The position numbers and the translations under genes are program-made. From the NCBI GenBank assembly GCA_017502875.1, contig JAFVUF010000017.1, forward strand, positions 32,772-96,771: DNA of 64,000 nt, given 5' to 3'. The DNA comes from Clostridia bacterium (GTDB lineage: Bacteria > Bacillota > Clostridia > Oscillospirales > CAG-272). Positions 3,935 through 55,823 of this stretch are shown here, piece after piece. Below the pieces are notes generated by a model, which worked only from the letters and a program-made list of their open reading frames with translations, was not told where the DNA came from and did no database searches. Position 1 is the first letter of the stretch, and each line of letters starts with the position of its first letter.

Positions 3935-4360
3935 TCACTCTTCGACAGTGATACCCATGGAACGTGCGGTTCCGGCTATCATGCTCATTGCGGTTTCGAT
4001 GGAAGCAGCGTTGAGGTCGGGCATCTTTGTTTCAGCTATCTGGCGAACCTGCTCCTTAGTAATGGAAGCAACCTTAGTCTTGTTAGGCGCGGCAGAAGCG
4101 GTCTCGATACCTGCAGCCTTCTTGATAAGAACGGGAGCAGGGGGAGTCTTGGTAATGAAAGTGAAGGAACGGTCAGCGTAAACCGTGATAACGACGGGGA
4201 TAATAAGACCCATCTGGTTCTTGGTTCTCTCGTTGAATTCCTTAGTAAATACGGGGATAGCTACGCCGTGCTGACCAAGAGCAGGTCCTATAGGCGGCTG
4301 GGGTGTTGCTTTACCTGCGGGTATCTGAAGCTTTATATACCCGGTGATCTTCTTTGCCAT
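3935..4360 (-). CDS. rplK: 50S ribosomal protein L11
   Basis: 141-aa ORF starting [33 protein letters not shown], the canonical L11 N-terminus. Confidence 0.97.
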
Positions 4361-4456
4361 TTTAAAAATCCTCCTATGTGGTTATTAATTCGGGAGACTT
4401 TCTCTCCCTCCCACGTAATAATGCGGTTTTTAGTACTCCGCAAAACTGATTTAGCA

Positions 4457-4984
4457 TTAGATAATGCGCTCGATCTGATTTGATTTGAGATCGACGGGAG
4501 TGCTTCTTCCAAACATGGAAGCGAGAACCGTAACAGTCTTCTTATCGTCGGATATAGACTGAACGACTCCGGAGTAGTTAGCGAGAGGACCGTCAATAAT
4601 CTTAACGGAGTCGCCAACCTCATAATCAAGAGTTACCACGGAAACCTCGATTCCCATTCTCGAGACCTCCTCGTCCGTAAGCGGAACCGGCTTGGAACCG
4701 GGGCCAACGAAGCCTGTAACACCCGTTATGTTTCTTACGACGTGCCAGTTAGCATCGTTCATAAGCATTTTTACGAGAACGTAGCTGGGCATAAGCTTTG
4801 CCTCGTACTCTTTATCACCGTCCATGCGAATTTCAACAGGAACAACGACGTCAACAATCTCGTCCTGAAGCTCGCGGTTTTCGATAATCTTTTCGAGGTT
4901 AGCCTTTACCTTGTTTTCGTATCCCGTGAAGGTGTGAACCACATACCAACGTATCTCTGGGATTGCATCGTTGAAATCACTCAT
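4457..4984 (-). CDS. nusG: Transcription termination/antitermination factor NusG
   Basis: 175-aa ORF with an NGN domain (WYVVHTFTGYENKVK) and a KOW motif (VGDSVKIIDGPLANYSGVV). It sits in the conserved secE-nusG-rplK order. Confidence 0.95.
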   Translation of the reverse strand: MSDFNDAIPEIRWYVVHTFTGYENKVKANLEKIIENRELQDEIVDVVVPVEIRMDGDKEYEAKLMPSYVLVKMLMNDANWHVVRNITGVTGFVGPGSKPVPLTDEEVSRMGIEVSVVTLDYEVGDSVKIIDGPLANYSGVVQSISDDKKTVTVLASMFGRSTPVDLKSNQIERII

Positions 4985-4999
4985 CTTTAATCACCTACA

Positions 5000-5365
5000 T
5001 TAAAAGAGATTAGCGAGCGCTTCGAGTCCGTTAGAGAAACCGAAGTCGAGCAAGCCGATAGCGATAGCGGCGACAGCCATAACAACCAGAACCAACAGTG
5101 TGCTTGTAAAGGTCTGCTTGCGGCTGAACCAGGTAACCTTTTTGAGTTCACTCTTCATTGTTTTCCAGAATCTCTTCAAAAGAGAACCGATACGGGCGAA
5201 GAAGCCCGGCTTCTTTTCATCCTTTGATTTCTTCTCGGATTTCTTTGCTTTCTTATCGTCTGCGCTTACGTCAGACACGGAATCGGTAGTCTCGATAGCT
5301 TCCTCGGTTACTTCAGTAGCCTCGGTTACCTCGGACTCCATATCCTTCATTTCTTTATCTGCCAT
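5000..5365 (-). CDS. secE: Preprotein translocase subunit SecE with a long charged N-terminal extension
   Basis: C-terminal 60 aa match SecE (ELKKVTWFSRKQTFTSTLLVLVVMAVAAIAIGLLD). The first ~55 aa are low-complexity E/K/S/T-rich. Its position between rpmG and nusG fits. Confidence 0.85.
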   Translation of the reverse strand: MADKEMKDMESEVTEATEVTEEAIETTDSVSDVSADDKKAKKSEKKSKDEKKPGFFARIGSLLKRFWKTMKSELKKVTWFSRKQTFTSTLLVLVVMAVAAIAIGLLDFGFSNGLEALANLF

Positions 5366-8911: not shown

Positions 8912-9934
8912 TTAGTCAAGAATAAATGTCTTTTTCTTTTTCTTGGGTGTCTGAACAGGCTCTGGAGCTGCATCAGTGGGCTTAGCAGCCTTTGTTCTCG
9001 TTCTCTTGGGCTTAGGCGCAGGCTGTTCTTCAATAATTATGGGAGTTTCAATAAGCGCAGAGACTATTTCAACGTTTTCAAGAGATACGTCGGAATTAAC
9101 AATACCCTCGATACCGTCTATCTCAACAGGAACAGGCTTTGGAGCAGGAGTAACGAACTCGTCTCTGCCTATACGGTAGTTTCTGGGAGACTGACCTGTG
9201 CTGTCTCTGAAAACTCTATTGAAGGTACGCTGGTTTTCAAAGCCTGATGCCTCGTATATTTCTGCTACCGGAATATCTGTTGAACGGAGAATGCTCTTGG
9301 CGCACTCAACTCTGAGATTATTGAGGTATTCCTTGAAACCAATACCAAGCTTGTTAGAGAAAAGGTGAGAAAGATGGAATCTGCTGACTCCCATTGCCTC
9401 TGCAAGCTGGTCAAGAGAAATCTGCTCTCTGAAGTGTATACTTAAATATGTAAGAACTCTGTTGGAAAGGTCAGAGGTAACTCCGTCGTGTATCTCCGCA
9501 AAGCGAAGCTTTGAGGTTACTATGCTTACCATGAGGTGTATCCAGCTGTGAGCGATATTTTTGTCGCGCTCCGTTGAAAGAGCTGAGAGAGCGTAGAGAA
9601 GCTGACTTGGGACGTTTATCGCTTTCAGTACAGGCGAGGCAGGACGCAGACCGCTATATCTCTTTATAATGTCCGTGATAAGCTCACATTTAATATTAAT
9701 AACGTAGACAACCGTGTTCTCGCCATCCGGAATTATGCAGTGAAGCATACTTGGCATAATAAACACAAAGTCGCCCTTCGTGAGCTTATACTCAAGCGTT
9801 CCGGTTGTAAGAGCCGCCTCTCCTTTTTCAATAAACAGTAATTCGGCTGAAGTATGAAGGTGCGGCTGAATACGCATTCCTTCCACCTTTTGCAGGCGCA
9901 ATGCCTCAATCGGATTTTCACAGAACGAATTCAT
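8912..9934 (-). CDS. AraC family transcriptional regulator with cupin N-domain and a Pro/Lys-rich C-terminal tail
   Basis: 340-aa ORF. It has a cupin-like N-terminus, an AraC HTH (LDQLAEAMGVSRFHLSHLFSNKLG...GQSPRNYR), and then ~90 aa of low-complexity tail ending PKKKKKTFILD. Confidence 0.85.
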   Translation of the reverse strand: MNSFCENPIEALRLQKVEGMRIQPHLHTSAELLFIEKGEAALTTGTLEYKLTKGDFVFIMPSMLHCIIPDGENTVVYVINIKCELITDIIKRYSGLRPASPVLKAINVPSQLLYALSALSTERDKNIAHSWIHLMVSIVTSKLRFAEIHDGVTSDLSNRVLTYLSIHFREQISLDQLAEAMGVSRFHLSHLFSNKLGIGFKEYLNNLRVECAKSILRSTDIPVAEIYEASGFENQRTFNRVFRDSTGQSPRNYRIGRDEFVTPAPKPVPVEIDGIEGIVNSDVSLENVEIVSALIETPIIIEEQPAPKPKRTRTKAAKPTDAAPEPVQTPKKKKKTFILD

Positions 9935-14718: not shown

Positions 14719-17700
14719 ATGCCAATTTGTAAGGATATAAAAAAGGTTCTTGTTATCGGCTCAGGTCCTATCGTTATCGGTCAGGCTGCAGAGTTTGACT
14801 ACGCCGGAGCGCAGGCATGCCGCGTGCTTAAAGCAGAGGGCATTAATGTTGTTCTCGTTAACTCTAACCCTGCTACGATAATGACTGATAAGGCGCTTGC
14901 AGATGAAATATATCTTGAGCCTCTTACTGTTGATACCGTAAAGAGAATTATTGAAAAGGAAAAGCCCGACAGTATTCTTGCCGGTCTTGGCGGTCAGACG
15001 GGTCTGACTATCGCTATGCAGCTTGCAAAGGAGGGCTTCCTTGAAAAAACGGGCGTAAGGCTTCTTGGAACTAATGCCGAAGCGATAGATAAAGCGGAGG
15101 ATAGAGAGCTTTTCCGAGACACAATGAAAAAGATAGGTCAGCCCTGCATACCCTCTGATATAGCAACTACGCTTGAAAAGGCTGAGGAAATAGCTGAAAA
15201 GATAGGCTATCCCGTTATTATTCGACCCGCCTTTACGCTTGGCGGCGCGGGCGGCGGTGTCGCGTACAATCTTGACGACCTTCGTATTATCGCCAAGAAC
15301 GGACTTATGCTTTCTCCCATAACGCAGGTGCTTGTTGAGAAGTATATCTACGGCTGGAAGGAAATCGAGTTCGAGGTAATGCGCGACAGTGTTGGAAACG
15401 CTATCGCTATATGCTCTATGGAGAACGTTGACCCTGTTGGAGTTCATACGGGCGACTCAATAGTCGTCGCTCCCGCGGTATCGCTTTCCGCTAAGGAATA
15501 CAGCATGCTCCGCAACGCTTCGCTTGATATAATTACCGAGCTTGGTATTGAGGGCGGCTGTAACTGTCAGTTTGCGCTTGATCCTAACAGTATGGATTAC
15601 GCAGTTATCGAGGTTAACCCCCGTGTTTCCCGTTCCTCCGCACTTGCTTCAAAGGCGACGGGATATCCTATAGCCAAGGTTACCTCAAAGATTGCTCTCG
15701 GTTATACTCTTGATGAGATAAAGAATGACGTTACGGGAACTACCTACGCCTGCTTTGAGCCTGCGATAGACTACATCGTTGTAAAATTCCCGAAGTGGCC
15801 CTTTGACAAGTTCGTTCACGCCAGCAGAACGCTTGGAACGGCTATGAAGGCGACGGGCGAGGTTATGTCCATTGCGCCTACGTTTGAGATGGCGATAATG
15901 AAGGCGGTAAGAGGCGCGGAGATATCACTTGATACTCTTAACAATCCCGCTATACAGGCAACAGAAAATATCGTTGATAAGCTCGGTAACCGTGATGACA
16001 GACGTCTCTTTACAGTTTTTGAGGCTTTAAAGAGAGGTATTACTGTTGACGAGATAAACAGAATAACGAAAATTGATAAATGGTTTATTAATAAGCTTAA
16101 AAATCTTGCGGAATTTGAGGACGATATCGCGGGAGTTAAGCTTACCGATGAAAACTATATTAAGGGTAAAAAATTCGGTTATACCGATAAGGCACTTGAA
16201 AGAATAAGCGGATATCCGCTTCCCGCAAGTAAGGACGCCGCATTTAAGATGGTTGATACCTGCGCTGCGGAGTTTAAGGCGGTAACCCCTTACTTCTACT
16301 CGACATATGATGATGAGTGCGAGGCAAGAGAGCTTGTGGGCACTGAGTGTAATAAGGAAAGAATTATCGTTCTCGGCTCAGGTCCTATCCGTATAGGTCA
16401 GGGTATTGAGTTCGACTATTCGTCAGTACACTGTGTTTGGGCGCTCAAAAAGCTCGGTTATGAGGTCGTTATTATAAACAACAACCCCGAGACCGTTTCT
16501 ACCGACTTCGATACTGCCGACAGACTGTACTTCGAGCCGCTTACTCCCGAGGACGTTATGAACGTTATCAAGGTAGAGAAGCCTGTTGGAGTAGTTGTCG
16601 CGTTTGGCGGTCAGACGGCTATTAAGCTTACTAAGTTCCTTGATGAAAACGGAATACAGATTCTCGGCACGTCAGCGGACGGAATTGACGTAGCTGAGGA
16701 CAGAGAACGCTTTGACGCGCTTCTTGAATCCTTTAATATAAGACGTCCCAAGGGACTCTCGGTTATGACCGAGGCAGAGGCTCTTGAAGCGGCTGCTACG
16801 CTTGGATATCCCGTTCTTCTTCGTCCTTCCTACGTTATCGGCGGTCAGAATATGACAATCGCTCATACCGAGGAGGACGTAAAGAGATACATGAAGATAA
16901 TTCTCGCCCAGGGTATTGAAAACGCGGTTCTTGTTGACCAGTACCTTATGGGAACTGAGCTTGAGGTTGACGTTATATCTGACGGTGAGGACGTTCTTAT
17001 TCCCGGTATTATGGAGCATATTGAGCGCGCCGGTATTCACTCAGGAGACTCTATCGCGGTATATCCGCCCTATAACCTGAGCGACAAAATGCGTAAAACG
17101 GTTATTGACTGCTCAACCAAGCTCGCTCTTTCTCTTAAAACCAAGGGACTTGTTAATATTCAGTACCTTATTTACAGAAACGAGCTTTATGTTATAGAGG
17201 TTAACCCAAGAGCTTCAAGAACTGTTCCCTATATCAGTAAGGTAACAAACGTTCCGATGGTTGATCTTGCGTCAAAGATTATGGTCGGAGCAAAGCTAAA
17301 GGATTTTGATTATGGCACAGGTCTTTATAAGACTCCGCCTTACTATGCCGTAAAGGTTCCCGTGTTCTCCTTTGAGAAGCTTAATGACGTTAACTCGGCG
17401 CTCGGCCCTGAGATGAAATCAACGGGTGAGGTTCTCGGTATAGGTAAAACTCTTAACGAGGCTATATTCAAGGGAATGATTTCGGCGGGCTTTAAGCTTT
17501 ACGATCATACCGACAATGCGGCTAAGGGTGTATTTATCACCGTTTCCGATCAGGATCAGCTTGAAATTGTTAAGCTCGCTAAGAAGCTTGACGAGCTTGG
17601 CTTCCACATTTACGCTACAAGAGGAACGGGCAGAGAAATTGCATCTCTCGGTATAGACGTAACGATAGTAAGAAACCTCAGCAAGTCAAATGAGATAATG

Positions 17701-18762: not shown

Positions 18763-18777
18763 TTTAAAAAATATTTT

Positions 18778-19146
18778 GAGTGGACGGCGCAATTGCGTAA
18801 TATGTTGCCGAAAGGTATTATTGCGAGGAAAGTCCGGGCTTCATAGGGCAGGATAACTGATAACGTCAGCCGAGGGTGACCTCCGGGAAAGTGCAACAGA
18901 AATAAACCGCCGAGTTTTACTCGGTAAGGATGGAAAGGCGAGGTAAGAGCTCACCGGCAGCTTGGTAACAAGCTTGCAAATGTAAACCCTATCCGAAGCA
19001 ACACCGTAATGTGAAAGGAGCATAAGCTCACGTTTGCCCGACGGAATTTCATAGGTGGCGAGGAGCTTTATGGCGACATAAAGCCAAGATAGATAATTGC
19101 GGTCGGTTTTTAAAGCCGTCACAGAACCCGGCTTACAAGTCCACTC
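18778..19146 (+). ncRNA. rnpB: RNase P RNA, bacterial type A
   Basis: P1 pairing GAGTGGAC...GTCCACTC. Universal motifs GAGGAAAGTCCGGGCT, AGTGCAACAGA, GGTAAGAGCTCACC and ACAGAACCCGGCTTA are colinear with the E. coli M1 RNA layout. Confidence 0.93.
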
Positions 19147-19157
19147 AAAACCATTTT

Positions 19158-46649: not shown

Positions 46650-46683
46650 AAAAAAATAAGACGGACAGTTAAAATCGTCCGTC
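46650..46683 (-). terminator. Rho-independent terminator ending the methyltransferase cluster
   Basis: On the minus strand: GACGGACG-ATTTTAAC-TGTCCGTC followed by TTATTTTTTT. Confidence 0.8.
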
Positions 46684-46693
46684 CTATATAATC

Positions 46694-48106
46694 TCAAAAT
46701 TCCATATTCATAAAGAACAATTCGGAAAACAAAAGGTCAGCCGAAAGATCTATGTACTCCGCTTTTTCTGTAAACACATCAAGTTCATTTCTCTCGATTG
46801 CGTATTTTACAGTACCGAGCAAGCTACTGTTATTAACCGGTACAAACTTATCAAGAAGCTCGTTTGGTATGAGTCCAACGAAAGCGGCATTCTTCGAATC
46901 AATACTCGCTGAAAAACCGCCTGCTACATACAAAGCCTCAATATCGTCAAATGAAGCTCCTGCTCTTTTAATAAGGCAAATAATTGCTGAAAGCACTGCG
47001 GATTTAGCGAGCTGAAACTCTCTAACATCCCTTTGAGTAAGAGTAACAGAGTCCGTTATACTAAACTCCTCATCCTCCATATATCCGCTATTGTCAATAA
47101 TCTTATTTCGGACAAGATAAGCTATTATGTCTACAAGTCCGGTAGCGCAAAGTCCGATAGGAGCAATATTACCTATTACCTTATAATTACCGTCAGACTG
47201 ATATACGGAAATTGCTCCGTTTATAGCGCTCATTCCGCATGAAATATTGGCGCCCTCAAAGCAAGGACCTGCCGCAGCCGCAGTTGAATACGCCTTGTCT
47301 TTACTAAAAAGAACTACTTCGGCGTTTGTTCCGAGATCAACAAGAAGGGCATACTTACTCTCGCTTGGCGTCCCTATATAATTCATACCGGCTACTATAT
47401 CAGCTCCTACAAATGCGGATATACTCGGAAGTGAGCGTACAGTATCAACCTTGTCAATACCTAATGCTTCTCCCTTTACGCACATGGCTTCTGTAAAGCT
47501 CGGAGTATATGGCGCGACGCCCATTGACGAACAATCTACACCGAAAAAGATATGTAGCATTGTTGCGTTACCTGATACGAGCATTTCCGGAAAAGATGAA
47601 AGACCGTACTGCTTTGTAATTTCAGCTATCATTTCGTTTACGGCGCCTTTTATAGCTTCGTAAAGCGCAACAACGCCGTTTTTACGGCAGTGATCAATTC
47701 TTGATATAACATCAGCGCCAAAGGCTCTTTGCGGATTAGTTTTTGTAATTACCTTTATTATACTCCTATCATCAAGAGATACAAGCGCAAGCGCAAGGGT
47801 TGTTGTTCCTATGTCAAGACAAAGACAGATATTCTTTGTCAGACAACCTTTTTCCTCTGCTCCGCTTACTGAAATCATCTCTGTCTGCTCAGGAATACTT
47901 ACGGTAATATCACAGTTAACCTTATACTGACACGATAGCTCCGGCTTGCCGTTAACGTAAACAGTACACTTTTTGCAGCTTCCCTTTCCGCCGCACAAAT
48001 GCTCAACGTATACTCCGTTTGAATTTAAAAGCTCAGAGAGCATACGTTCTCCCTCAAAGCTTATTATACTATGTTCACCGTTACCGATGACCTTTACATT
48101 GGGCAT
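46694..48106 (-). CDS. Corrinoid reductive activase (2Fe-2S ferredoxin domain plus ASKHA ATPase, RACE/DUF4445 type)
   Basis: 470 aa. N-terminal LCGGKGSCKKCTV...C ferredoxin motif. ASKHA phosphate motifs LDIGTTTLALAL and VDLGTNAEVVL. Confidence 0.85.
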   Translation of the reverse strand: MPNVKVIGNGEHSIISFEGERMLSELLNSNGVYVEHLCGGKGSCKKCTVYVNGKPELSCQYKVNCDITVSIPEQTEMISVSGAEEKGCLTKNICLCLDIGTTTLALALVSLDDRSIIKVITKTNPQRAFGADVISRIDHCRKNGVVALYEAIKGAVNEMIAEITKQYGLSSFPEMLVSGNATMLHIFFGVDCSSMGVAPYTPSFTEAMCVKGEALGIDKVDTVRSLPSISAFVGADIVAGMNYIGTPSESKYALLVDLGTNAEVVLFSKDKAYSTAAAAGPCFEGANISCGMSAINGAISVYQSDGNYKVIGNIAPIGLCATGLVDIIAYLVRNKIIDNSGYMEDEEFSITDSVTLTQRDVREFQLAKSAVLSAIICLIKRAGASFDDIEALYVAGGFSASIDSKNAAFVGLIPNELLDKFVPVNNSSLLGTVKYAIERNELDVFTEKAEYIDLSADLLFSELFFMNMEF

Positions 48107-48107
48107 T

Positions 48108-48665
48108 TTAATTCTCCTTGAAAAGTACTGCGCCGAAATATGTTACGGTATCCTGACCGTTTATGTATTTCATACCTGCTGCCGGCGCAAGCTGAGATAC
48201 GTTTACACCGTATGCTTCAAGCGATGGCATAGCCAGCTCAGGGAAACGGCATGGCTCACCGGTCCTCTTTGAACACACCTCGCACACACCGCAACCGCCC
48301 GCACCGAGATGCAGAGCATTGGTTATATTCATATCCTTGAACACGTTACGCAGCTTTTGAGCAATTGGATAAGTAGATTTTTTTGCCTCAACCATTCCCT
48401 CAAAATCGAAGCTGTCTTCAAGCTCAGTTACAGTCTGATAAACGAGTGCGTAGTCGTATTTTCCGACCTCTGCCATAAGCATGTCGATATCTCCAACATC
48501 GGGTGGGCACATCCAGCACTTGCCGTATACTCCGCAAGCATTTGTTTCGCACATATTACGAAAAGCTCTGTCAAGAGATATTTTATTTACAGCAATTACA
48601 TTTGCCTTATAGGCGCCGAGATTTTTTACTTCCTCGATAAGCCTTTCGAACAACTTATTTTCCAT
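48108..48665 (-). CDS. DUF2284 metal-binding protein
   Basis: Cys-rich CETNACGVYGKCWMCPP and GGCGVCEVC. The ATG at 48665 overlaps the stop of the upstream gene (ATGGAAAATAA). Confidence 0.7.
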   Translation of the reverse strand: MENKLFERLIEEVKNLGAYKANVIAVNKISLDRAFRNMCETNACGVYGKCWMCPPDVGDIDMLMAEVGKYDYALVYQTVTELEDSFDFEGMVEAKKSTYPIAQKLRNVFKDMNITNALHLGAGGCGVCEVCSKRTGEPCRFPELAMPSLEAYGVNVSQLAPAAGMKYINGQDTVTYFGAVLFKEN

Positions 48666-49668
48666 AGAATTCCTCTGATGCCGCAAAGAACGCATCAATA
48701 TTCTTCCAAGGAGTCATAGGCGGCATATCACAGCCTGATGACAGAACGAAGTTTTCATATTTACAGCATTTTTCCATAAGAGAAATCGTAGCTTCTCTTA
48801 CGCCTTCGGGAGTTCCCATACGGAGCACGCCCGCAGGATCAATGTTGCCCATTACTACGGTATCCGCGGGAACCTGGGAGATTATATCCTTCTCCATATC
48901 AACGGCGTTACCGAAATGGTACGCCGCGCAGCCCGTACTGAGTATTGAGTCAAGCATTTTGGGAACGTTATCTCCGCAGTTGTGATAGATGAGAACGAAC
49001 TCATCATCCTGTATCGCCTCAGCAATCTTCTTTACGTAAGGCGAGGAAAATTCCTCCTCAAGCGAGGGAGAGAGCAATCCTGCTACCGGCTCTGCCATTA
49101 CTATTCCGTTAGCGCCAACAGCCTTGTATGCCTTTGCGTATTCGATAAGAAAATCCGTAACCTTTTCCATTACGAGATGTACCATATCGGGATCGTCGTA
49201 GCAGTCCATCATAATCTCTGAAACGTCAAGAAGTCTTGCCGCCAATGAAAACGGACCTATCATTCCCGCAAGCACAGGGCGGTCGGTAATTATTTCGGAC
49301 GCCTTTTTGATTGCATCAATGTATATCTGCGTTCTACCGCTTCCGATAGCAGGAACTTCAAGCGCCTGCGCTTCGTCCATATCGTTGATAATTCTTCCCT
49401 TAACAGTAGGAACCTCGTCATCAGATACGGAAACTGTCGCGCCAAAGCACTCAGCCTCGACTGATAAATCCATGAAGCTTACAGAGGCGGCGGCGTCTGT
49501 TCTGTCCGCGACAAGCTTCATTCCCTTTGCCTGAAGCGCGCTGTCGGATATGAGCTCACGAACAGTTATGCCAAGAAGGCTTACGCAAGGAAATGAAAGC
49601 ACAGGTATAGGCTTTTTAGGTTGTGTTCCTTTTAAGCTCTCTACCCAATTTTTCATATTGTATTTCAC
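48655..49668 (-). CDS. MtaA/CmuA-type methylcobamide methyltransferase (URO-D superfamily, Zn site present)
   Basis: 337 aa. IYHNCGD and SSGCDMPP give the His-x-Cys...Cys zinc triad typical of MtaA/MtbA-like MT-II enzymes. Confidence 0.8.
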   Translation of the reverse strand: MKYNMKNWVESLKGTQPKKPIPVLSFPCVSLLGITVRELISDSALQAKGMKLVADRTDAAASVSFMDLSVEAECFGATVSVSDDEVPTVKGRIINDMDEAQALEVPAIGSGRTQIYIDAIKKASEIITDRPVLAGMIGPFSLAARLLDVSEIMMDCYDDPDMVHLVMEKVTDFLIEYAKAYKAVGANGIVMAEPVAGLLSPSLEEEFSSPYVKKIAEAIQDDEFVLIYHNCGDNVPKMLDSILSTGCAAYHFGNAVDMEKDIISQVPADTVVMGNIDPAGVLRMGTPEGVREATISLMEKCCKYENFVLSSGCDMPPMTPWKNIDAFFAASEEFYGK

Positions 49669-49690: not shown

Positions 49691-50752
49691 TCATCTCTTT
49701 CTCATTCTTTCAAAGCACTCATTATACCAGAGCGCGTTTTCAACAGGAGTGTTTGCAGGTATGTGATTTCCCACCGCCATAATGAAACCGGGACACTTCT
49801 TTCCAATATCCATACAGCGCTTTACTTCGTTTTCTATAGCTTCTTTAGTTCCACTCAGAAGTATTCTCGTATCCGCATTTCCAATAAACGAATGTGTTCT
49901 TCCGTATTTCTGAGCAATATACTCCATATCAGTAGTAGGCTCCATAACAAATCCGTCAAATCCACATTCAGCTATATCATCAATAAACACATTATACGTA
50001 CCGTCGGAAGTGAAAAGAACCTTTTTCCCAGCCTGCTTGAGAGGATCGAGATATCTTTTATAACAGGGGAAAACGTATTTTCTGTACCATTCAGGTGATA
50101 CAAACGGTCCTGATGTCCATACAATATCGTCATGTATCATAATGACAGGCGCATCACTGTCTGCAAAAGCATTATAGTATTTTTGAATCCACTGGGAATA
50201 GCGTTCGAGCACCTTTCCCATTTGTTCAGAATCCTCTGCTAATCCATCAAGCAAAAGCTCCCAGCCGAACAGATCTATGAGCGCAGAAACAGCCGTTACG
50301 TATGTCCCCATCGTATTTACAAGATCAGGATCTCTACTGCACTTAGATGCATATCCATTATTGAACCTTTTTACAAGCTCACTATGTGTATATGAAGGCA
50401 ACAATTTCATCGCATCAAAGCTTAAAACGTCATCAACATTATTAAAATAAGACTTTATTTCGCTATCATAATCCGTGTTTCCGGCACTGTAAGCCGCGTG
50501 TCCCATTTTTGTACGTACTTCACCGAACTCAGATGCTTCAACATCTATAGACCATTCAAGCCCGTAATCCCAAGCCTTTCTGAATTCTGATCCAGCCTTC
50601 CTCTTGTCGTCTTCACTTGACGTAGGTGTAAGAGTCGTTCCGAGAACAGCATTAATAAGATCTAAATGATATAAAGCGGCTGAGTACTCTGTTCGTGGAA
50701 CTCTGTCGGGCATTTCTAGATTAATCGCCGCTATACCGTCACTATATGACAT
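49691..50752 (-). CDS. URO-D superfamily methyltransferase paralogue (putative substrate:corrinoid MT-I)
   Basis: 353 aa with a MPDRVPRTE N-terminus and a TIM-barrel-like URO-D pattern. It lacks the HxC motif of the MtaA-like neighbour. Confidence 0.6.
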   Translation of the reverse strand: MSYSDGIAAINLEMPDRVPRTEYSAALYHLDLINAVLGTTLTPTSSEDDKRKAGSEFRKAWDYGLEWSIDVEASEFGEVRTKMGHAAYSAGNTDYDSEIKSYFNNVDDVLSFDAMKLLPSYTHSELVKRFNNGYASKCSRDPDLVNTMGTYVTAVSALIDLFGWELLLDGLAEDSEQMGKVLERYSQWIQKYYNAFADSDAPVIMIHDDIVWTSGPFVSPEWYRKYVFPCYKRYLDPLKQAGKKVLFTSDGTYNVFIDDIAECGFDGFVMEPTTDMEYIAQKYGRTHSFIGNADTRILLSGTKEAIENEVKRCMDIGKKCPGFIMAVGNHIPANTPVENALWYNECFERMRKR

Positions 50753-50771: not shown

Positions 50772-51401
50772 TTATTTGCAAAGCTCGACTGCTGCGTCAG
50801 CAGCGGAAGCCGCGTCAGAGGTGTAGCAATCTGCACCAATCATACGGCAGAATTCCTCGGAAACGGGAGCGCCACCTATCATTATCTTTACCTTATCACG
50901 AATACCCGCATCTTCCGCAGCCTTAACTACGTCGCCCATAACGCCCATTGTGGTCGTAAGAAGCGCAGAGCAGCAGATGATCTGACAGTCATTCTCGATG
51001 GCGGCATTTACAAATGCTTCGGGAGATACGTCGGTTCCGAGGTCAATAACCTCAAGGCCCTTGCCCTCAAGCATCATTTTTACAAGGTTCTTACCGATAT
51101 CGTGAAGGTCTCCCTGAACGGTACCTATGCAAACCTTACCCTTTGCCTGTACTCCATCGCTTGCGAGCAGAGGCTTGAGAACCTGCATACCCATATTCAT
51201 AGCTCTTGCCGCAACAAGAACCTCAGGAACGTAAACCTCGTTATTCTTGAACTTTTCGCCAATAACGTTCATTCCGTCAAGCAGCGCGGAAAGAATATCC
51301 TTGCTTGCGACGCCCTCGTCAATTGCGGTCTGTACCTGCTCCTTTACGAGCTTTGCTTTGCCCTTCTGAAGATTTTCGCTGATTTCGTTGATAATGCTCA
51401 T
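50772..51401 (-). CDS. Corrinoid (cobalamin-binding) protein
   Basis: 209 aa. Helical cap plus Rossmann domain with the DxHxxG motif in GTVQGDLHDIGKNLV. Confidence 0.92.
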   Translation of the reverse strand: MSIINEISENLQKGKAKLVKEQVQTAIDEGVASKDILSALLDGMNVIGEKFKNNEVYVPEVLVAARAMNMGMQVLKPLLASDGVQAKGKVCIGTVQGDLHDIGKNLVKMMLEGKGLEVIDLGTDVSPEAFVNAAIENDCQIICCSALLTTTMGVMGDVVKAAEDAGIRDKVKIMIGGAPVSEEFCRMIGADCYTSDAASAADAAVELCK

Positions 51402-51475: not shown

Positions 51476-53032
51476 CTAATGCTCTTTGTTATCATTAAAT
51501 TCACAGCAAATTTTATAAGCAATATTTGCGCAAGTTGCGGCATCAGAGCTATAAAAGTCTGCTCCAATCTCTCGGCAGTATCTCTCTGAAACCGGCGCTC
51601 CGCCGATAAGAATCTTAACCTTATCGCGAATCCCGGCTTCGACTGCCTTCTTTACAACGTCTGCCATTACTCCAAGCGTAGTAGTTAAGAGAGCCGAGCA
51701 GCATATCGCGCGGCAGTCTTGTTCTATCGCTGTTTTTATGAATTCATCAGGGGAAACGTCGGTTCCGAGATCGATAACCTCTATTCCTCTTCCCTCCAGC
51801 ATCATTTTGACGAGGTTCTTTCCTATGTCGTGAAGATCACCTTGAACCGTTCCTATACAAACTCTACCTACAGGCTTTATTCCATCTTTAACAAGCAAGG
51901 GACGTAGCAACTGAATACCGGTATTCATCGCTCGGGCTGAGACTAAAACCTCCGGAACGTACGCACGGTTGTTAATAAACTTCTCTCCAACCGTATTCAT
52001 ACCGTTTAGAAGCGCGTTAAGAATTTCCTGAGTGGTGATTTTAAGGTTAATTGCTTCTTCTATCAGTTCCTTTATTTTCTTTGACTCACCCGATGAAATT
52101 GCCTCAGTTATTTCATTAAGTACGCTTCCTATACGTTTATCAAACTTACTTTTGGATACGAATACCTGCTGTCTGTACTGCTTCGGAGTCATACCTATAA
52201 GCTGTTGGAAATTGCGGTAAAATGACGGCAAATCCTTCAGTCCGCACCTTGAAACCACCTCATCTACCGCAACGTCAGTATACTGCAACAGACGGCAAGC
52301 GTGGCTGATTCTTACTCTGCGAAGATAACTTGAAAAGGGTTCGCCGGTAAGTCGGTTAAAAATACGGCTGAGCTGTGATTTACTTATGTAAAGCGATAGC
52401 GCTATGCTTTCAAGAGTAAGCTCGCTGTCCTGAAATCTATCGGTTACCATACGTATAGCCGACGATACTATGTGCCATTCCTTTGGCGGAAAGGTCTGGG
52501 CGTTTCTTATCGCGCTGTTGACGTAACGGCAAAGCGTTATAAACGTCAGCGTAATATTTGCCCTTACTGCCGATAGCCATTCCTGCTTTTTATCCTTTAT
52601 TTCATCGCTTATTTTGTCAAAAAGCTGTTCAAGCTCCGCTTTTGTTTTTGAATTAAGCATAGCATATGCTGATATCGAATTATCCCTGAATAACCCAAAG
52701 CAAAACCTTGTATCTCCGGGTATCTCCGTTCCGTCCGAATAAAACGCGTTAAGATCTACAAGAACGCGACGAATATTAAGAGACGTGTTTTCTTTATTAA
52801 CAAAATACGCATGCGGAATATGCGCAGGTATCAGAAATATATCGTTTTCTTTGCAGGGGACCGTTTGATTCATTATCTGATGTATACCGCTTCCGGATAC
52901 GATAAGTGCTATTTCAAGCTTGTCGCATGCTTCTACCCTTGAAAATGAAACGGTTGGATCGTATAATTCACTTACACTGTCCAGACTGTAGCAAATCGGA
53001 GACAGCGAATTATTACATTGAGGTTTACTCAT
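51476..53032 (-). CDS. AraC family regulator fused to a C-terminal corrinoid-binding module
   Basis: 518 aa. Cupin-like N-terminus, then AraC HTH (SQLSRIFNRLTGEPFSSYLRRVRISHACRLL...GMTPKQYR). From ~aa 300 there is a B12 cap plus Rossmann domain with GTVQGDLHDIGKNLVKMMLEG. Confidence 0.85.
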   Translation of the reverse strand: MSKPQCNNSLSPICYSLDSVSELYDPTVSFSRVEACDKLEIALIVSGSGIHQIMNQTVPCKENDIFLIPAHIPHAYFVNKENTSLNIRRVLVDLNAFYSDGTEIPGDTRFCFGLFRDNSISAYAMLNSKTKAELEQLFDKISDEIKDKKQEWLSAVRANITLTFITLCRYVNSAIRNAQTFPPKEWHIVSSAIRMVTDRFQDSELTLESIALSLYISKSQLSRIFNRLTGEPFSSYLRRVRISHACRLLQYTDVAVDEVVSRCGLKDLPSFYRNFQQLIGMTPKQYRQQVFVSKSKFDKRIGSVLNEITEAISSGESKKIKELIEEAINLKITTQEILNALLNGMNTVGEKFINNRAYVPEVLVSARAMNTGIQLLRPLLVKDGIKPVGRVCIGTVQGDLHDIGKNLVKMMLEGRGIEVIDLGTDVSPDEFIKTAIEQDCRAICCSALLTTTLGVMADVVKKAVEAGIRDKVKILIGGAPVSERYCREIGADFYSSDAATCANIAYKICCEFNDNKEH

Positions 53033-53079
53033 TACTGAAACATCTCCATTAAGAATTTACAGTTTGAATAATGGTTATA

Positions 53080-54198
53080 TTAAGGCTTAATCTTCTTGAT
53101 TTCATCTGCGTAATACTGAACAAGCTCGAATTTAGTGCCGGGCATAAGTAAATGGTCGGGGCAAGGAATAAATCCACCAAGTGATGCAAGACGCTTCATT
53201 CTCTCAATCTCAGCGTCAACCGCCGCCTTATCCTCTCGCAGCACTCTTTTATCCATTCCGCCAACGCCAAGCATTCCTTTTCCAAAGCGCTTTCTCGCAG
53301 GCTCAAATTGGTCTCCCCAAACACCTACTTCTATTGGAAACATCGTGTTTACACCGTTTTCAAACCAAACAGGCAGCAGCTGTTCGACAACACCGTCGCA
53401 GTCCAGGGAAATTATATCTATTCCGTGTTTATGGCATAGGTCATTACGTTTTTTGTAGTGCTTAGCGCAAAGCTCTTCGAATTTATCGGGGGCAACAAGC
53501 GGTCCGTTTTTAAAGCATATATCCTCCCAATAGTGCGCGAAATCAAATTTTACGCCCGTATTAAGCACAGCCTCAATACATTTATACTGCATATCGGCGT
53601 AAGCGTCAATGATATCAGCAAGTAAATCCTCGTCCTCGTCATACATAAGATAACTCATGCCGAGAACACTAGTCATACTTCTTATATCACCAAGTACACT
53701 TCCAATACTAATACCTCTCGGTCTGTCATATTTTTCCATATCGTTGTATTTTTCGAAAAACTCAGCAGATACTCTATCAGGTGTGAATTGCATTTTCGGA
53801 AGATATAGCTCTTCAAACGCAGCTCTGTCCTTTAACGTGTAGTCGTCTTCTGAGGGAATGGAGGTCTTTCCGGGTTTTACTCTTTCAATAATACCTTCAT
53901 TATTTATTATGCGGCGTTCTCCGTTTGGAAGAACCTCAAGCACCTTTTTTTCAAATTGTGGCAAAAGCTTGTGCTTGGGTTCGATAGCGCACGCCCAGTT
54001 AAAATCCCAACCTATGAGCTTATCAAGCTCTGCATCAGCTTCATTTGATTGGCGCCAATTTTCCGCAAGACTTTTCGGGATTTTTCCTTGCTTAGCCCAC
54101 TCGTAAAGGAGCTCTTCCCAATATCCGAAATGAACAGCAGGAAGTCTGTCCACAGGCTTATAATGAAGTAAATTAAGCGCTCTTTCTCTATTTGTCAT
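53080..54198 (-). CDS. URO-D superfamily methyltransferase paralogue (putative substrate:corrinoid MT-I)
   Basis: Start at MTNRERALNLL (GGAGG 6 nt upstream; the track ORF is 6 codons longer). URO-D-like C-terminal half (FENGVNTMFPIEV...GGFIPCPDH). Confidence 0.65.
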   Translation of the reverse strand: MTNRERALNLLHYKPVDRLPAVHFGYWEELLYEWAKQGKIPKSLAENWRQSNEADAELDKLIGWDFNWACAIEPKHKLLPQFEKKVLEVLPNGERRIINNEGIIERVKPGKTSIPSEDDYTLKDRAAFEELYLPKMQFTPDRVSAEFFEKYNDMEKYDRPRGISIGSVLGDIRSMTSVLGMSYLMYDEDEDLLADIIDAYADMQYKCIEAVLNTGVKFDFAHYWEDICFKNGPLVAPDKFEELCAKHYKKRNDLCHKHGIDIISLDCDGVVEQLLPVWFENGVNTMFPIEVGVWGDQFEPARKRFGKGMLGVGGMDKRVLREDKAAVDAEIERMKRLASLGGFIPCPDHLLMPGTKFELVQYYADEIKKIKP

Positions 54199-54285
54199 AA
54201 AAACCTCCAAAAACATCTATGTCGATTTTCAATCTGTGGTCTTAAATAAACAAAGTTAAACATATCAGACGCGCAGTATACAAAT

Positions 54286-54313
54286 ATTATAACAGAAAAA
54301 AACTAAAAGTAAA
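54286..54313 (-). promoter_or_regulatory. Candidate promoter of the methyltransferase cluster
   Basis: On the minus strand: TTTACT (54313-54308), 16 nt, TGT-TATAAT (tataat at 54291-54286). It lies ~80 nt upstream of the first gene. Confidence 0.4.
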
Positions 54314-54554
54314 TGCGGTACTGTTCTTTTTTTGTACCCCTTATGCAACAAAACCAAGTATAATTTAAACAACGCATGAATTAAGGATATTATGCGCTCA
54401 AAAAGATATTCGGAAAAATAAAAACTTTGGCACTCTGAAACGCTACATAAAAAAATGCGTAAAATCAAAATTAAATGATATTGTTCGTAAATAAATGATA
54501 ATTTAGCAACAAATTATGTGCAGATTTATAAAATTGAATTAATATTAACACACG

Positions 54555-55568
54555 CTAATTCACCTTATTTTTAGGTTCGCCGCGCAAAAAAGCAGCGATG
54601 TTTTCGGCTGCTATATTGACAAGTCGCTGTCTTGTTTCCTTTGCCGCCCACGCTATGTGAGGTGTAATATAGCAGTTATCTATGCCGTAAAGCGCGCAGT
54701 CCTTTTGCATAGGCTCTATCGAAACGGTATCGACGCAAGCGGCGTATATACTGCCGTTTTTTAATGCGTTTGCGAGAGCTTCCTCATCTACTACTCCGCC
54801 TCTTGCCGTATTAATCAGCACCGCAGTTTTTTTCATAAGTGAAAGCGTATCCTCATTCACTATTTTAGCGGTATCAGAATTAAGCGGACAGTGTACGGTA
54901 AGGTAATCGCTTCTTGAAAACAGCTCTTCCTTTGTAACAAATTCATAAGGACAGCCGTTATTTCTTCTCGAATGTACAATTATCTGCATTCCATAGACCT
55001 TGGCAATCTCCGCAACCCTTTTACCTATGCTTCCGTAGCCAAGTATTCCAAGGGTTTTTCCTTTAAGCTCCGTTATCGGAAAAGGATAGTAGCAAAACGA
55101 CTTGGATTTTTTCCAATCACCCGAATTTACGGAATCAATGTATTTTCCAAGCGATGATGAAACGTACAAAATAAAGCTAAACACGTGCTGAGCAACCGCA
55201 TCGGTTGAATATCCCGCAACGTTACAGACTGTTATTCCCTTTTGGCTTGCGTAATCGATATCGATATTGTTATATCCCGTTGCAAAAAGCCCTATATATT
55301 TTAGCTTCGGACAGGCATCGATAACAGTCCTGTCAATGACGGTTTTATTTACGATTACTCCGTCATAGTTTTTAACCGTTTCAATGACCTTATCTTTATC
55401 TATTCTTGCGTAATAATCAATATCGGCGGCGTTTTCAAGCAGCGAAAAATCAATATCGCCGTTAGTTACGCTATCACGCTCCAGTACTGCAATCTTCATG
55501 TTTAAAATATTTACGTTTAAACCACAAACACAAGATTTAAAGGTACAGTCTTCAGGATTCACATACAT
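54555..55568 (-). CDS. D-isomer-specific 2-hydroxyacid dehydrogenase
   Basis: NAD motif GILGYGSIGKRVA and catalytic R/E/H (TARGGVVDEEAL, ITPHIAW). Start is uncertain: 55568 has an AAAGGTGG SD, while 55499 gives the family-typical MKIAVL N-terminus. Confidence 0.85.
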   Translation of the reverse strand: MYVNPEDCTFKSCVCGLNVNILNMKIAVLERDSVTNGDIDFSLLENAADIDYYARIDKDKVIETVKNYDGVIVNKTVIDRTVIDACPKLKYIGLFATGYNNIDIDYASQKGITVCNVAGYSTDAVAQHVFSFILYVSSSLGKYIDSVNSGDWKKSKSFCYYPFPITELKGKTLGILGYGSIGKRVAEIAKVYGMQIIVHSRRNNGCPYEFVTKEELFSRSDYLTVHCPLNSDTAKIVNEDTLSLMKKTAVLINTARGGVVDEEALANALKNGSIYAACVDTVSIEPMQKDCALYGIDNCYITPHIAWAAKETRQRLVNIAAENIAAFLRGEPKNKVN

Positions 55569-55823
55569 AATATAAACCACCTTTCCCACCGATGCGTAGC
55601 TCTTTTTCGGCATAATCGTTTATGCTGCTCTAAATAAAGTCGAGTATTTCGCACGTAGTGTGTAAGTCATTATCATTCTTTTTCAGTCGCAACACAGTTG
55701 CACAAATACATTATATAGTTTTAAACTTTACTTGTCAAGATATCTTTATTTTGGTTGTAATATTGACATTGGTATTGTTTAATGATATAATTAATTGATA
55801 TAAAACAAAAAGAGGCAAATAAT

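Follow-up and report, generated by a model that had tools for sequence, protein, structure and literature searches.

The window analyzed here is a 64,000-nucleotide stretch of a Clostridia bacterium genome (contig JAFVUF010000017.1, positions 32,772–96,771). It contains, on the minus strand, a gene in which an AraC-type transcription factor is joined to a complete corrinoid-binding module, located in a predicted operon of corrinoid-dependent methyl transfer and next to the gene of a free corrinoid protein (CoP). The 518-amino acid product is recorded at NCBI as MBR2474510.1, from a Clostridia metagenome-assembled genome (MAG), and is labeled only ‘cobalamin-dependent protein’; the free CoP is MBR2474509.1. 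The fused gene, its parts, and the free CoP gene are as follows.

51476..53032, minus strand: AraC-corrinoid protein chimera gene, 518 amino acids, a single uninterrupted open reading frame (ORF) with four Pfam domains
52448..53032, minus strand: cupin-type AraC effector/dimerization domain and two long helices, amino acids 1–195 (AlphaFold2, Foldseek, and AraC_binding, PF02311, at amino acids 24–111, 33.1 bits against a cut-off of 21.1)
52157..52447, minus strand: AraC helix-turn-helix (HTH) region (HTH_18, PF12833, at amino acids 213–289, 75.5 bits against a cut-off of 33.6; HTH_AraC, PF00165, in two stretches, 49.8 bits against a cut-off of 26.6)
52127..52156, minus strand: variable linker between the HTH and the B12 cap, amino acids 293–302 (alignment; predicted local distance difference test score, pLDDT, <50 at amino acids 292–294)
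51899..52126, minus strand: four-helix B12 cap, assigned to the methyl-carrier type, without Wx9EH, amino acids 303–378 (B12-binding_2, PF02607, at amino acids 305–376, 58.9 bits)
51476..51898, minus strand: Rossmann B12-binding domain, amino acids 379–518 and stop codon (B12-binding, PF02310, at amino acids 390–493, 86.3 bits)
50772..51401, minus strand: free 209-amino acid CoP (Pfam and BLASTP)

An earlier note, made from the sequence alone, had described a cupin-like domain, an AraC HTH, a B12 cap, and a Rossmann domain with a DxHxxG motif in this one ORF. Pfam bore this out, with AraC_binding, HTH_18, B12-binding_2, and B12-binding all detected above their gathering cut-offs. The DxHxxG motif is located at amino acids 399–404 (D399, H401, and G404; nucleotides 51821–51838), and SALLTT and GGAP motifs are also found in the Rossmann domain. 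The best NCBIfam matches of the fused protein are MtgC and TIGR02370. It scores 169.6 bits against TIGR02370 and the free CoP scores 176.6 bits, both below the cut-off of 215.3, which indicates that the cut-off leaves out the whole bacterial branch and not merely the fusion. NCBIfam holds no model for an AraC-corrinoid fusion, and family members are named in databases only as ‘HTH domain-containing’ or ‘cobalamin-dependent protein’.

We pooled database matches with fetched loci to give 146 nonredundant full-length members of the family. Near-invariant amino acids of the N-terminal domain in this set are E40, G47, G49, H51, C60, D64, H74, C111, G113, F115, E144, W152, and R169. Six of these (E40, H51, C60, D64, H74, and C111) belong to the cupin domain and form a potential ligand- or metal-binding set. 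Their conservation suggests that the pocket is not of the plain sugar type but contains a metal center or a redox-sensitive site. DxHxxG is present in all 146 members and GDLHDIGK in 145, and counts of the cofactor motifs are 145–146 throughout.

The AlphaFold2 (AF2) model of the fused protein has a mean pLDDT of 81.9 and a predicted template modeling score (pTM) of 0.46. Its N-terminal half is composed of strands at amino acids 13–92 and helices at amino acids 128–174, and there is a disordered stretch at amino acids 292–294; the linker between HTH and cap has 17–29% identity across the family and varies in length in the alignment. In Foldseek searches against the PDB, the N-terminal half matched ToxT and Rns. 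The best matches of the C-terminal half were MttC (7xcn), MMCP (3ezx), the D. hafniense O-demethylase CoP (4jgi), MtaC (2i2x), and MetH, at 30–36% identity, with target-normalized template modeling scores of 0.77–0.81 to MttC and the D. hafniense CoP. CarH-type domains were weaker matches (18–22% identity), and no PDB structure spanning both halves was found by Foldseek. The Wx9EH motif, which holds the adenosyl group in CarH, occurs in none of the 146 full-length members. Pfam gave no match to a MerR HTH in the fused protein, the DNA-binding domain being AraC-type, nor to the PocR domain (PF10114), and the Ada zinc domain was not detected. The CarH model of NCBIfam is missing from the 25 top-ranked families listed for the fused protein, and it matches the free CoP weakly (32.8 bits against a cut-off of 400). 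Judged by sequence and predicted fold, the B12 module is of the methyl-carrier type.

The fusion and the free corrinoid protein

The B12 module of the chimera and the free CoP of the window form a single gap-free BLASTP alignment (137 of 207 amino acids identical, 66%; E = 3e-98), as expected from the colinearity described in the earlier note. The hand counts given there were reproduced exactly: 112 of 153 amino acids are identical between amino acids 357–509 of the regulator and the free CoP, including the 24-residue block VCIGTVQGDLHDIGKNLVKMMLEG at amino acid 391 of the regulator and amino acid 90 of the CoP. The two had been called close paralogues, which holds at the protein level but not at the DNA level. 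DNA identity over the fused B12 stretch is 65%, with a longest exact run of 14 nucleotides; the same codon is used at 52 of 132 identical residues, and the 24-residue block alone has 13 synonymous differences. The low DNA identity, short exact run, and scrambled synonymous sites rule out that the fused module and the free CoP were recently duplicated or homogenized by gene conversion, and indicate that the protein similarity is old and has been kept by selection. Against fused modules elsewhere in the family, the identity of the free CoP reaches 85%, as compared with 66% against that of its own neighbor.

The architecture is widespread. Among the matches listed from a search of 5.8 billion proteins, at least 120 proteins of 503–568 amino acids have the HTH and both B12 domains, at 48–98% identity, and the hosts of the homologues are gut and rumen Clostridia. 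The fusion is stable over deep divergence, with identity in the N-terminal half falling to about 32%. That a regulator gene and a CoP gene were joined by a missed stop or a frameshift in assembly or annotation, a concern of the earlier note for the domain junction, is hardly credible. No such break is found there; the reading frame is unbroken in the window, the identical 518-amino acid protein occurs on five contigs from several sources, and more than 140 nonredundant full-length homologues come from independent assemblies. What speaks for an artifact is that broken versions exist on low-coverage contigs. One of these (P0122, locus L133, 6009–7508) lies on a contig of 3x coverage and is split into an AraC-plus-cap ORF (343 amino acids) and a Rossmann ORF (143 amino acids), probably by a sequencing frameshift.

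Operons of the family

The other genes of the operon, and the hairpin that follows it, are listed below.

53080..54216, minus strand: divergent URO-D-like methyltransferase, first gene of the operon and candidate substrate-specific methyltransferase I (MT-I) (PF01208, 27.9 bits)
49691..50752, minus strand: URO-D-family methyltransferase, 353 amino acids, second candidate MT-I (PF01208, 105 bits)
48655..49668, minus strand: MtaA-like URO-D methyltransferase, 337 amino acids, candidate methyltransferase II (MT-II) (PF01208, 197.6 bits; PDB 4ay7, E = 1.8e-19)
48108..48698, minus strand: DUF2284 metal-binding protein (PF10050, 158.7 bits)
46694..48106, minus strand: RACo-type reductive activator of corrinoid proteins, with Fer2, RACo middle, and ASKHA parts (PF14574, 182 bits; PF17651, 137 bits)
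46656..46687, minus strand: intrinsic terminator-like hairpin of 12 pairs with a T-run, directly after the RACo gene (sequence)

Seven same-strand genes thus run from 54216 to 46694 with gaps of 1–74 nucleotides, and the hairpin is likely to mark the end of the operon. No internal promoters were predicted in the 47- and 74-nucleotide gaps flanking the regulator gene, and in an Rfam scan of the whole window, the operon leader gave no match to a cobalamin riboswitch or any other known RNA. The first methyltransferase has 378 amino acids from the listed ATG at 54216. The ATG at 54198, which follows GGAGG and gives 372 amino acids, is likely to be the true start, and 372-amino acid orthologues adjoin fusions in many loci. 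A PDB sequence search with the 378-amino acid protein gave no match, and no substrate could be assigned. The MtaA-like methyltransferase is the most constant partner of the fusion, being present in most fusion loci.

Loci were fetched from genomes and metagenomes, the metagenome query being the regulator half only, and were annotated with the window’s own proteins as probes. Absence of a free CoP was scored within the contig or ±10 kb at most, many contigs being much shorter. The closest relatives of the window’s protein (P0001–P0010, 54–98% identity) are referred to here as the window’s clade. In 34 loci outside this clade (8 genome, 23 metagenome, and 3 more), the surrounding DNA encodes no B12-binding protein other than the fused module. 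The usual order is fusion, MtaA-like methyltransferase, 372-amino acid URO-D-like methyltransferase, DUF2284, and RACo; methyltransferase genes are found in the 34 loci, and DUF2284 and RACo in most of the longer ones. The 3 loci added to the genome and metagenome sets, for which gene calls and Pfam labels are independent, likewise have no free CoP, and one of them has six URO-D-like genes. The fusion gene has a 4-nucleotide start/stop overlap with neighboring enzyme genes in six loci (L001, L005, L008, L098, L126, and L131).

Conservation outside the window’s clade is highest in the B12 half (cap 71% and Rossmann domain 76%, versus 42% for the N-terminal domain and 54% for the HTH). L018, whose operon is equivalent and has the same promoter element, encodes a free CoP that shares 91% identity with the fused module of L094. 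Since methyltransferases and reductive activators require a corrinoid protein as a partner, the fused module outside the window’s clade is probably the methyl carrier of its operon, and not a decoy. The earlier note drew the picture of a regulator that borrowed the pathway’s corrinoid protein; across the family, the reverse is the rule.

Clusters of the window’s clade are larger, with many URO-D-like genes (up to about nine) and a free CoP. A free CoP gene was seen in 7 of the 10 loci; in the remaining ones (L127, L130, and L131) the DNA breaks off downstream of the gene. Among the loci examined, only this clade has fusion and free CoP together. Compared over the same locus pairs, the free CoPs are 86–96% identical and the fused modules 59–84%, the latter changing at about the pace of the HTH domain. 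Root-to-tip distances in a neighbor-joining tree without bootstrap are 0.37 for the fused modules of the clade, 0.18 for other fused modules, and 0.155 for free CoPs. Clade-specific substitutions are mostly in the first cap helices (I312, S313, E316, I320, and K331), and all cofactor-binding motifs are kept. This pattern fits subfunctionalization, in which the free CoP would carry methyl groups and the fused module would be partly relaxed but still selected to bind cobamide. The idea that the module is a sensor or decoy suits the window’s protein, in whose clade the free CoP has changed far more slowly than the fused module, but not the rest of the family, where the module is probably the carrier itself. 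Three clusters of the clade (L126, L128, and L132) also encode several proteins of 350–410 amino acids with no or faint URO-D Pfam matches (in L128, 8753–9976, 11561–12628, and 13731–14789), which are likely to be very divergent substrate-specific methyltransferases.

Related regulators occur in similar settings. A PocR-AraC gene of the MtaR type lies directly upstream of a free CoP gene in ten loci (L009, L011, L017, L029, L036, L037, L039, L040, L053, and L071), with PF10114 detected in the regulators of L009, L017, and L039. Adjacent genes for an AraC regulator and a CoP are therefore common, and a fusion can arise from such an arrangement. Clustering at 50% gave 33 representatives of the cupin-AraC subfamily (E <= 1e-30), of which 7 are fused and about 20 are near 280–350 amino acids; the count is rough, as fragments and frameshifted fusions such as P0122 are among the short ones and inflate the apparent number of unfused relatives. 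A ‘split’ version is found in L104 (1705–5713), with a 294-amino acid cupin-AraC protein that has no B12 module, an MtaA-like methyltransferase, a free 210-amino acid CoP, and RACo. The fusion operon of L135, from a Clostridia MAG, is flanked by two phage-type integrase genes (3946–5076 and 16010–17206) and phage-like genes (ERF and YonV_C), a setting that hints at travel on a mobile island.

A candidate operator

54286..54355, minus strand: operon promoter and family-specific operator-like element (leader comparison across loci and pattern search)

The element is composed of two boxes. Box 1, GGTTTTGTTGC, is located at 54345–54355, and box 2, CCGCATTT, at 54311–54318, where it overlaps the −35 element TTTACT (54308–54313). 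With the extended −10 element TGTTATAAT, which ends at 54286, the predicted promoter spans 54313–54286. The composite GGTTTTGTTKC-N24-30-CCNYATTT occurs once in the window (54311–54355), with 0 occurrences expected by chance. Exact composites were found in 20 of 134 loci (L001, L002, L003, L005, L018, L085, L087, L089–L093, L095, L096, L099, L101, L124, L126, L127, and L132), once in each, and every copy is on the strand of the operon and precedes its first gene. Of these loci, 19 are fusion loci and the other is L018. With one mismatch allowed, the composite was found in 28 of 41 fusion loci as compared with 8 of 94 others. Nearly all fusion loci without it are on short contigs that extend little or not at all upstream; the exceptions are L007 and L008, which have a diverged copy in their leaders. 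Two of the eight matches in non-fusion loci are genuine (L018 and L134), and six are chance-like (five on the opposite strand and one without the box 2 consensus). A pattern search of the fetched loci showed the composite to be absent from those with PocR-AraC regulators. The composite of L134 precedes an unfused cupin-AraC gene, which ties the element to the AraC half. From its position and distribution, the composite is probably the binding site of the AraC half, placed as for a class-II activator.

The conserved element emerged solely from comparing loci. A generic repeat search of the leader (54190–54570) gave only short AT-rich two-copy repeats, which are chance-like, and a direct repeat spotted by eye near 54470–54500, TATCATTTA, is not conserved in relatives. 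Two stretches had been put forward in the earlier note for electrophoretic mobility shift assays. The stretch at 54217–54320 covers the −10 and −35 elements and box 2 but misses box 1, and the gap at 53033–53079, in which no promoter is predicted, is a poor candidate.

Possible mechanisms and known systems

The explanation that best accounts for these observations, and to which we give an even chance, is a carrier-regulator chimera, or ‘trigger’ protein, whose fused module in the window’s clade mainly reports on the pathway. The AraC half would bind the promoter element and autoregulate the operon, probably as a class-II-type activator. In most members, the fused module would be the working carrier, accepting a methyl group at Co(I) from MT-I, giving it up to MT-II, and being reduced again by RACo. 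The free and highly conserved CoP of the window’s clade would have taken over or would share this role, and the fused module would have drifted. In the window’s protein, the presence, methylation, or oxidation of the cobamide, or a docked partner (MT-I, MT-II, or RACo), would change how the AraC half binds to DNA or acts as an activator, and substrate flux would thereby be coupled to transcription. More tentatively, the protein may be a transcription factor with its own catalytic methyl-cobamide as ‘ligand’. Its module would be methylated by the operon’s MT-I in the presence of substrate and demethylated by MT-II, and the AraC half would be switched by a docked partner or by the proportions of the CH3-Co(III), Co(I), and Co(II) forms, such that methyl flux is read and not metabolite level.

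Several points weigh against the carrier-regulator chimera. Communication between the B12 module and the AraC half is something we infer, and while the AF2 domains are confident, their mutual arrangement is not, the model giving no fixed inter-domain contact. The cupin domain, with its own conserved pocket residues, may be the only sensor. Unfused cupin-AraC relatives adjoin the same kind of genes (L104 and L134), which indicates that the regulator half can work without the B12 module, and the fused module of the window’s clade could be a second carrier for some MT-I paralogues. In addition, the absence of a free CoP covers only the contig or ±10 kb, and the tree behind the divergence rates is a neighbor-joining tree without bootstrap.

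A rather unlikely but serious alternative is that of two independent functions on one chain. The cupin domain would sense a small molecule (substrate or product) and the B12 module would be only a carrier, with no allosteric link; in the window’s clade the module would be a second carrier for a subset of MT-I proteins, and the fusion, having come from an ‘AraC then CoP’ gene order, would persist by guaranteeing co-production. Such an origin is consistent with the ten loci in which PocR-AraC genes are directly upstream of free CoP genes, and the lack of a link with the flexible linker, the low pTM, the strongly conserved cupin pocket, and the unfused relatives that have the same operon type and operator (L104 and L134). 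Two carriers are also plausible in clusters with up to about nine URO-D-like genes. However, the fusion has been stable down to about 32% identity in the N-terminal half, the module of the window’s clade keeps its cofactor motifs beside a better-conserved free CoP while changing at the pace of a regulator, and full independence sits poorly with a transcription factor made at carrier levels or a carrier made at regulator levels. Less probable still is a gate for cofactor availability, in which the module reports only apo versus holo protein and the operon is switched on when cobamide has been obtained, as a protein counterpart of the cobalamin riboswitch with opposite sign. Many gut Clostridia rely on imported cobamides, all cofactor-binding motifs are conserved, and the Rfam scan of the window found no cobalamin riboswitch, all of which would suit such a gate. 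A pure binding sensor, however, need not stay up to 91% identical to working CoPs, and the gate leaves unexplained why most operons have no other carrier in the surrounding DNA.

The fusion of a B12-binding domain to a DNA-binding domain also calls to mind the light sensors CarH and LitR, in which adenosylcobalamin (AdoCbl) is bound and photolysis changes the state of the protein, and CarH-type domains are indeed among the weaker structural matches. We rejected a CarH-like photoreceptor on the basis of the absent Wx9EH motif (0 of 146) and of the structural matches, which are best to methyl carriers (30–36% identity versus 18–22% for CarH-type domains). The AraC rather than MerR DNA-binding domain, the hosts, which are strict gut and rumen anaerobes of a dark habitat, and the operon partners, which are methyltransferases and RACo, likewise make a light sensor extremely improbable. 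The likeness to CarH and LitR lies in the combination of a DNA-binding domain, a four-helix cap, and a Rossmann B12 domain with a histidine lower ligand, and in CarH and LitR the state of the cofactor controls transcription. The differences are their MerR HTH, AdoCbl held by Wx9EH, a light-driven change of oligomer, and the lack of known methyltransferase or RACo partners.

The chimera shares with the free CoPs (MtaC, MttC, MtbC, MtgC, and the D. hafniense protein of 4JGI) the same two-domain fold, motifs, and operon partners, but these are about 210–260 amino acids in length and have no DNA-binding part, whereas the fused protein has 300 AraC residues before the module. Corrinoid modules are often fused to partners, as to methyltransferase domains in CmuA, MetH, and MtsF-type proteins; there, however, the partner is an enzyme domain and not a transcription factor. 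Ada of Escherichia coli is an AraC-family protein that is turned into an activator by accepting a methyl group, the signal being DNA damage, and it provides a precedent for the idea of a methylated regulator in the window’s clade. Transfer in Ada is irreversible and goes to a zinc-bound cysteine, whereas the acceptor in the fused protein would be cobamide and the transfer reversible. In the trigger enzymes PutA, BirA, and NadR, one polypeptide is both part of a pathway and a regulator, and catalytic engagement sets regulatory activity. The chimera shares this layout, with a pathway component and a DNA-binding domain in one polypeptide that is encoded in the operon it presumably regulates, but PutA, BirA, and NadR have other folds and chemistry, and none is known to use a corrinoid or an AraC domain. 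EutR and PocR (for PocR, PMC13602510) are AraC-family regulators tied to cobamide-dependent metabolism, which respond to AdoCbl or control B12-dependent pathways. Unlike the fused protein, EutR and PocR are not known to have a canonical B12-binding domain.

The only characterized regulator that we found for corrinoid demethylase systems is MtaR of Eubacterium limosum, a protein with PocR and AraC domains whose activation of the methanol methyltransferase operon has been demonstrated (PMC13602510). MtaR is likewise an AraC-type activator encoded in a corrinoid methyltransferase operon, with its site just upstream of the −35 element (PMC13602510). It differs in having a PocR sensor and no B12 module, the AraC-corrinoid family having a cupin sensor and a fused CoP, and the operators also differ (proposed GAAAAT/ATTTCC repeats for MtaR, PMC13602510, versus GGTTTTGTTKC...CCNYATTT). 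Regulation of corrinoid-dependent demethylase systems ‘remains largely unexplored’ according to a 2026 paper (PMC13222342). The earlier note had left room for the architecture already having a characterized function. No description of an AraC-B12 fusion was found in the full texts of open-access papers, an absence that is not proof, and no paper linking ‘trigger enzyme’ with ‘corrinoid’ was found in open-access full texts. Transcription factors with B12 domains and trigger enzymes are already known kinds; it is for the combination of AraC with a corrinoid carrier that the open-access papers searched gave no description.

With corrinoid-dependent demethylases, anaerobes of gut, rumen, and sediment can remove methyl groups from the methoxy-aromatics of plants and from drugs, amines, and halomethanes. 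In the AraC-corrinoid family, regulator and methyl carrier form one physical unit; the family is widespread, can serve as a test case, and comes with a predicted operator for binding assays. A family switched by methyl-cobamide would add a second class to the B12-dependent transcription factors, one that does not depend on light, and would be the first regulator described for the large family of bacterial URO-D/corrinoid demethylase operons. Control of DNA binding by corrinoid state would extend B12 gene control beyond riboswitches and light sensors, and could provide synthetic biology with a switch that works without oxygen and responds to cobamide supply or to methyl-transfer flux. Should the halves prove independent, a carrier role for an ‘HTH protein’ would still alter the reading of metagenomes, as operons seemingly without a corrinoid protein would have one.

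Other features of the window were also noted. A short distance upstream of the operon promoter, and in the same orientation, lies a D-2-hydroxyacid dehydrogenase gene (54555–55613, minus strand); L124 (1073–2086), the locus of a 98% relative, has the same arrangement. The sole Rfam match in the window is a bacterial RNase P RNA of class A (18777–19151, plus strand, 271 bits). A second, unrelated AraC-family ORF of 340 amino acids (8912–9934, minus strand), with a weak HTH-only match, lies far from the operon.

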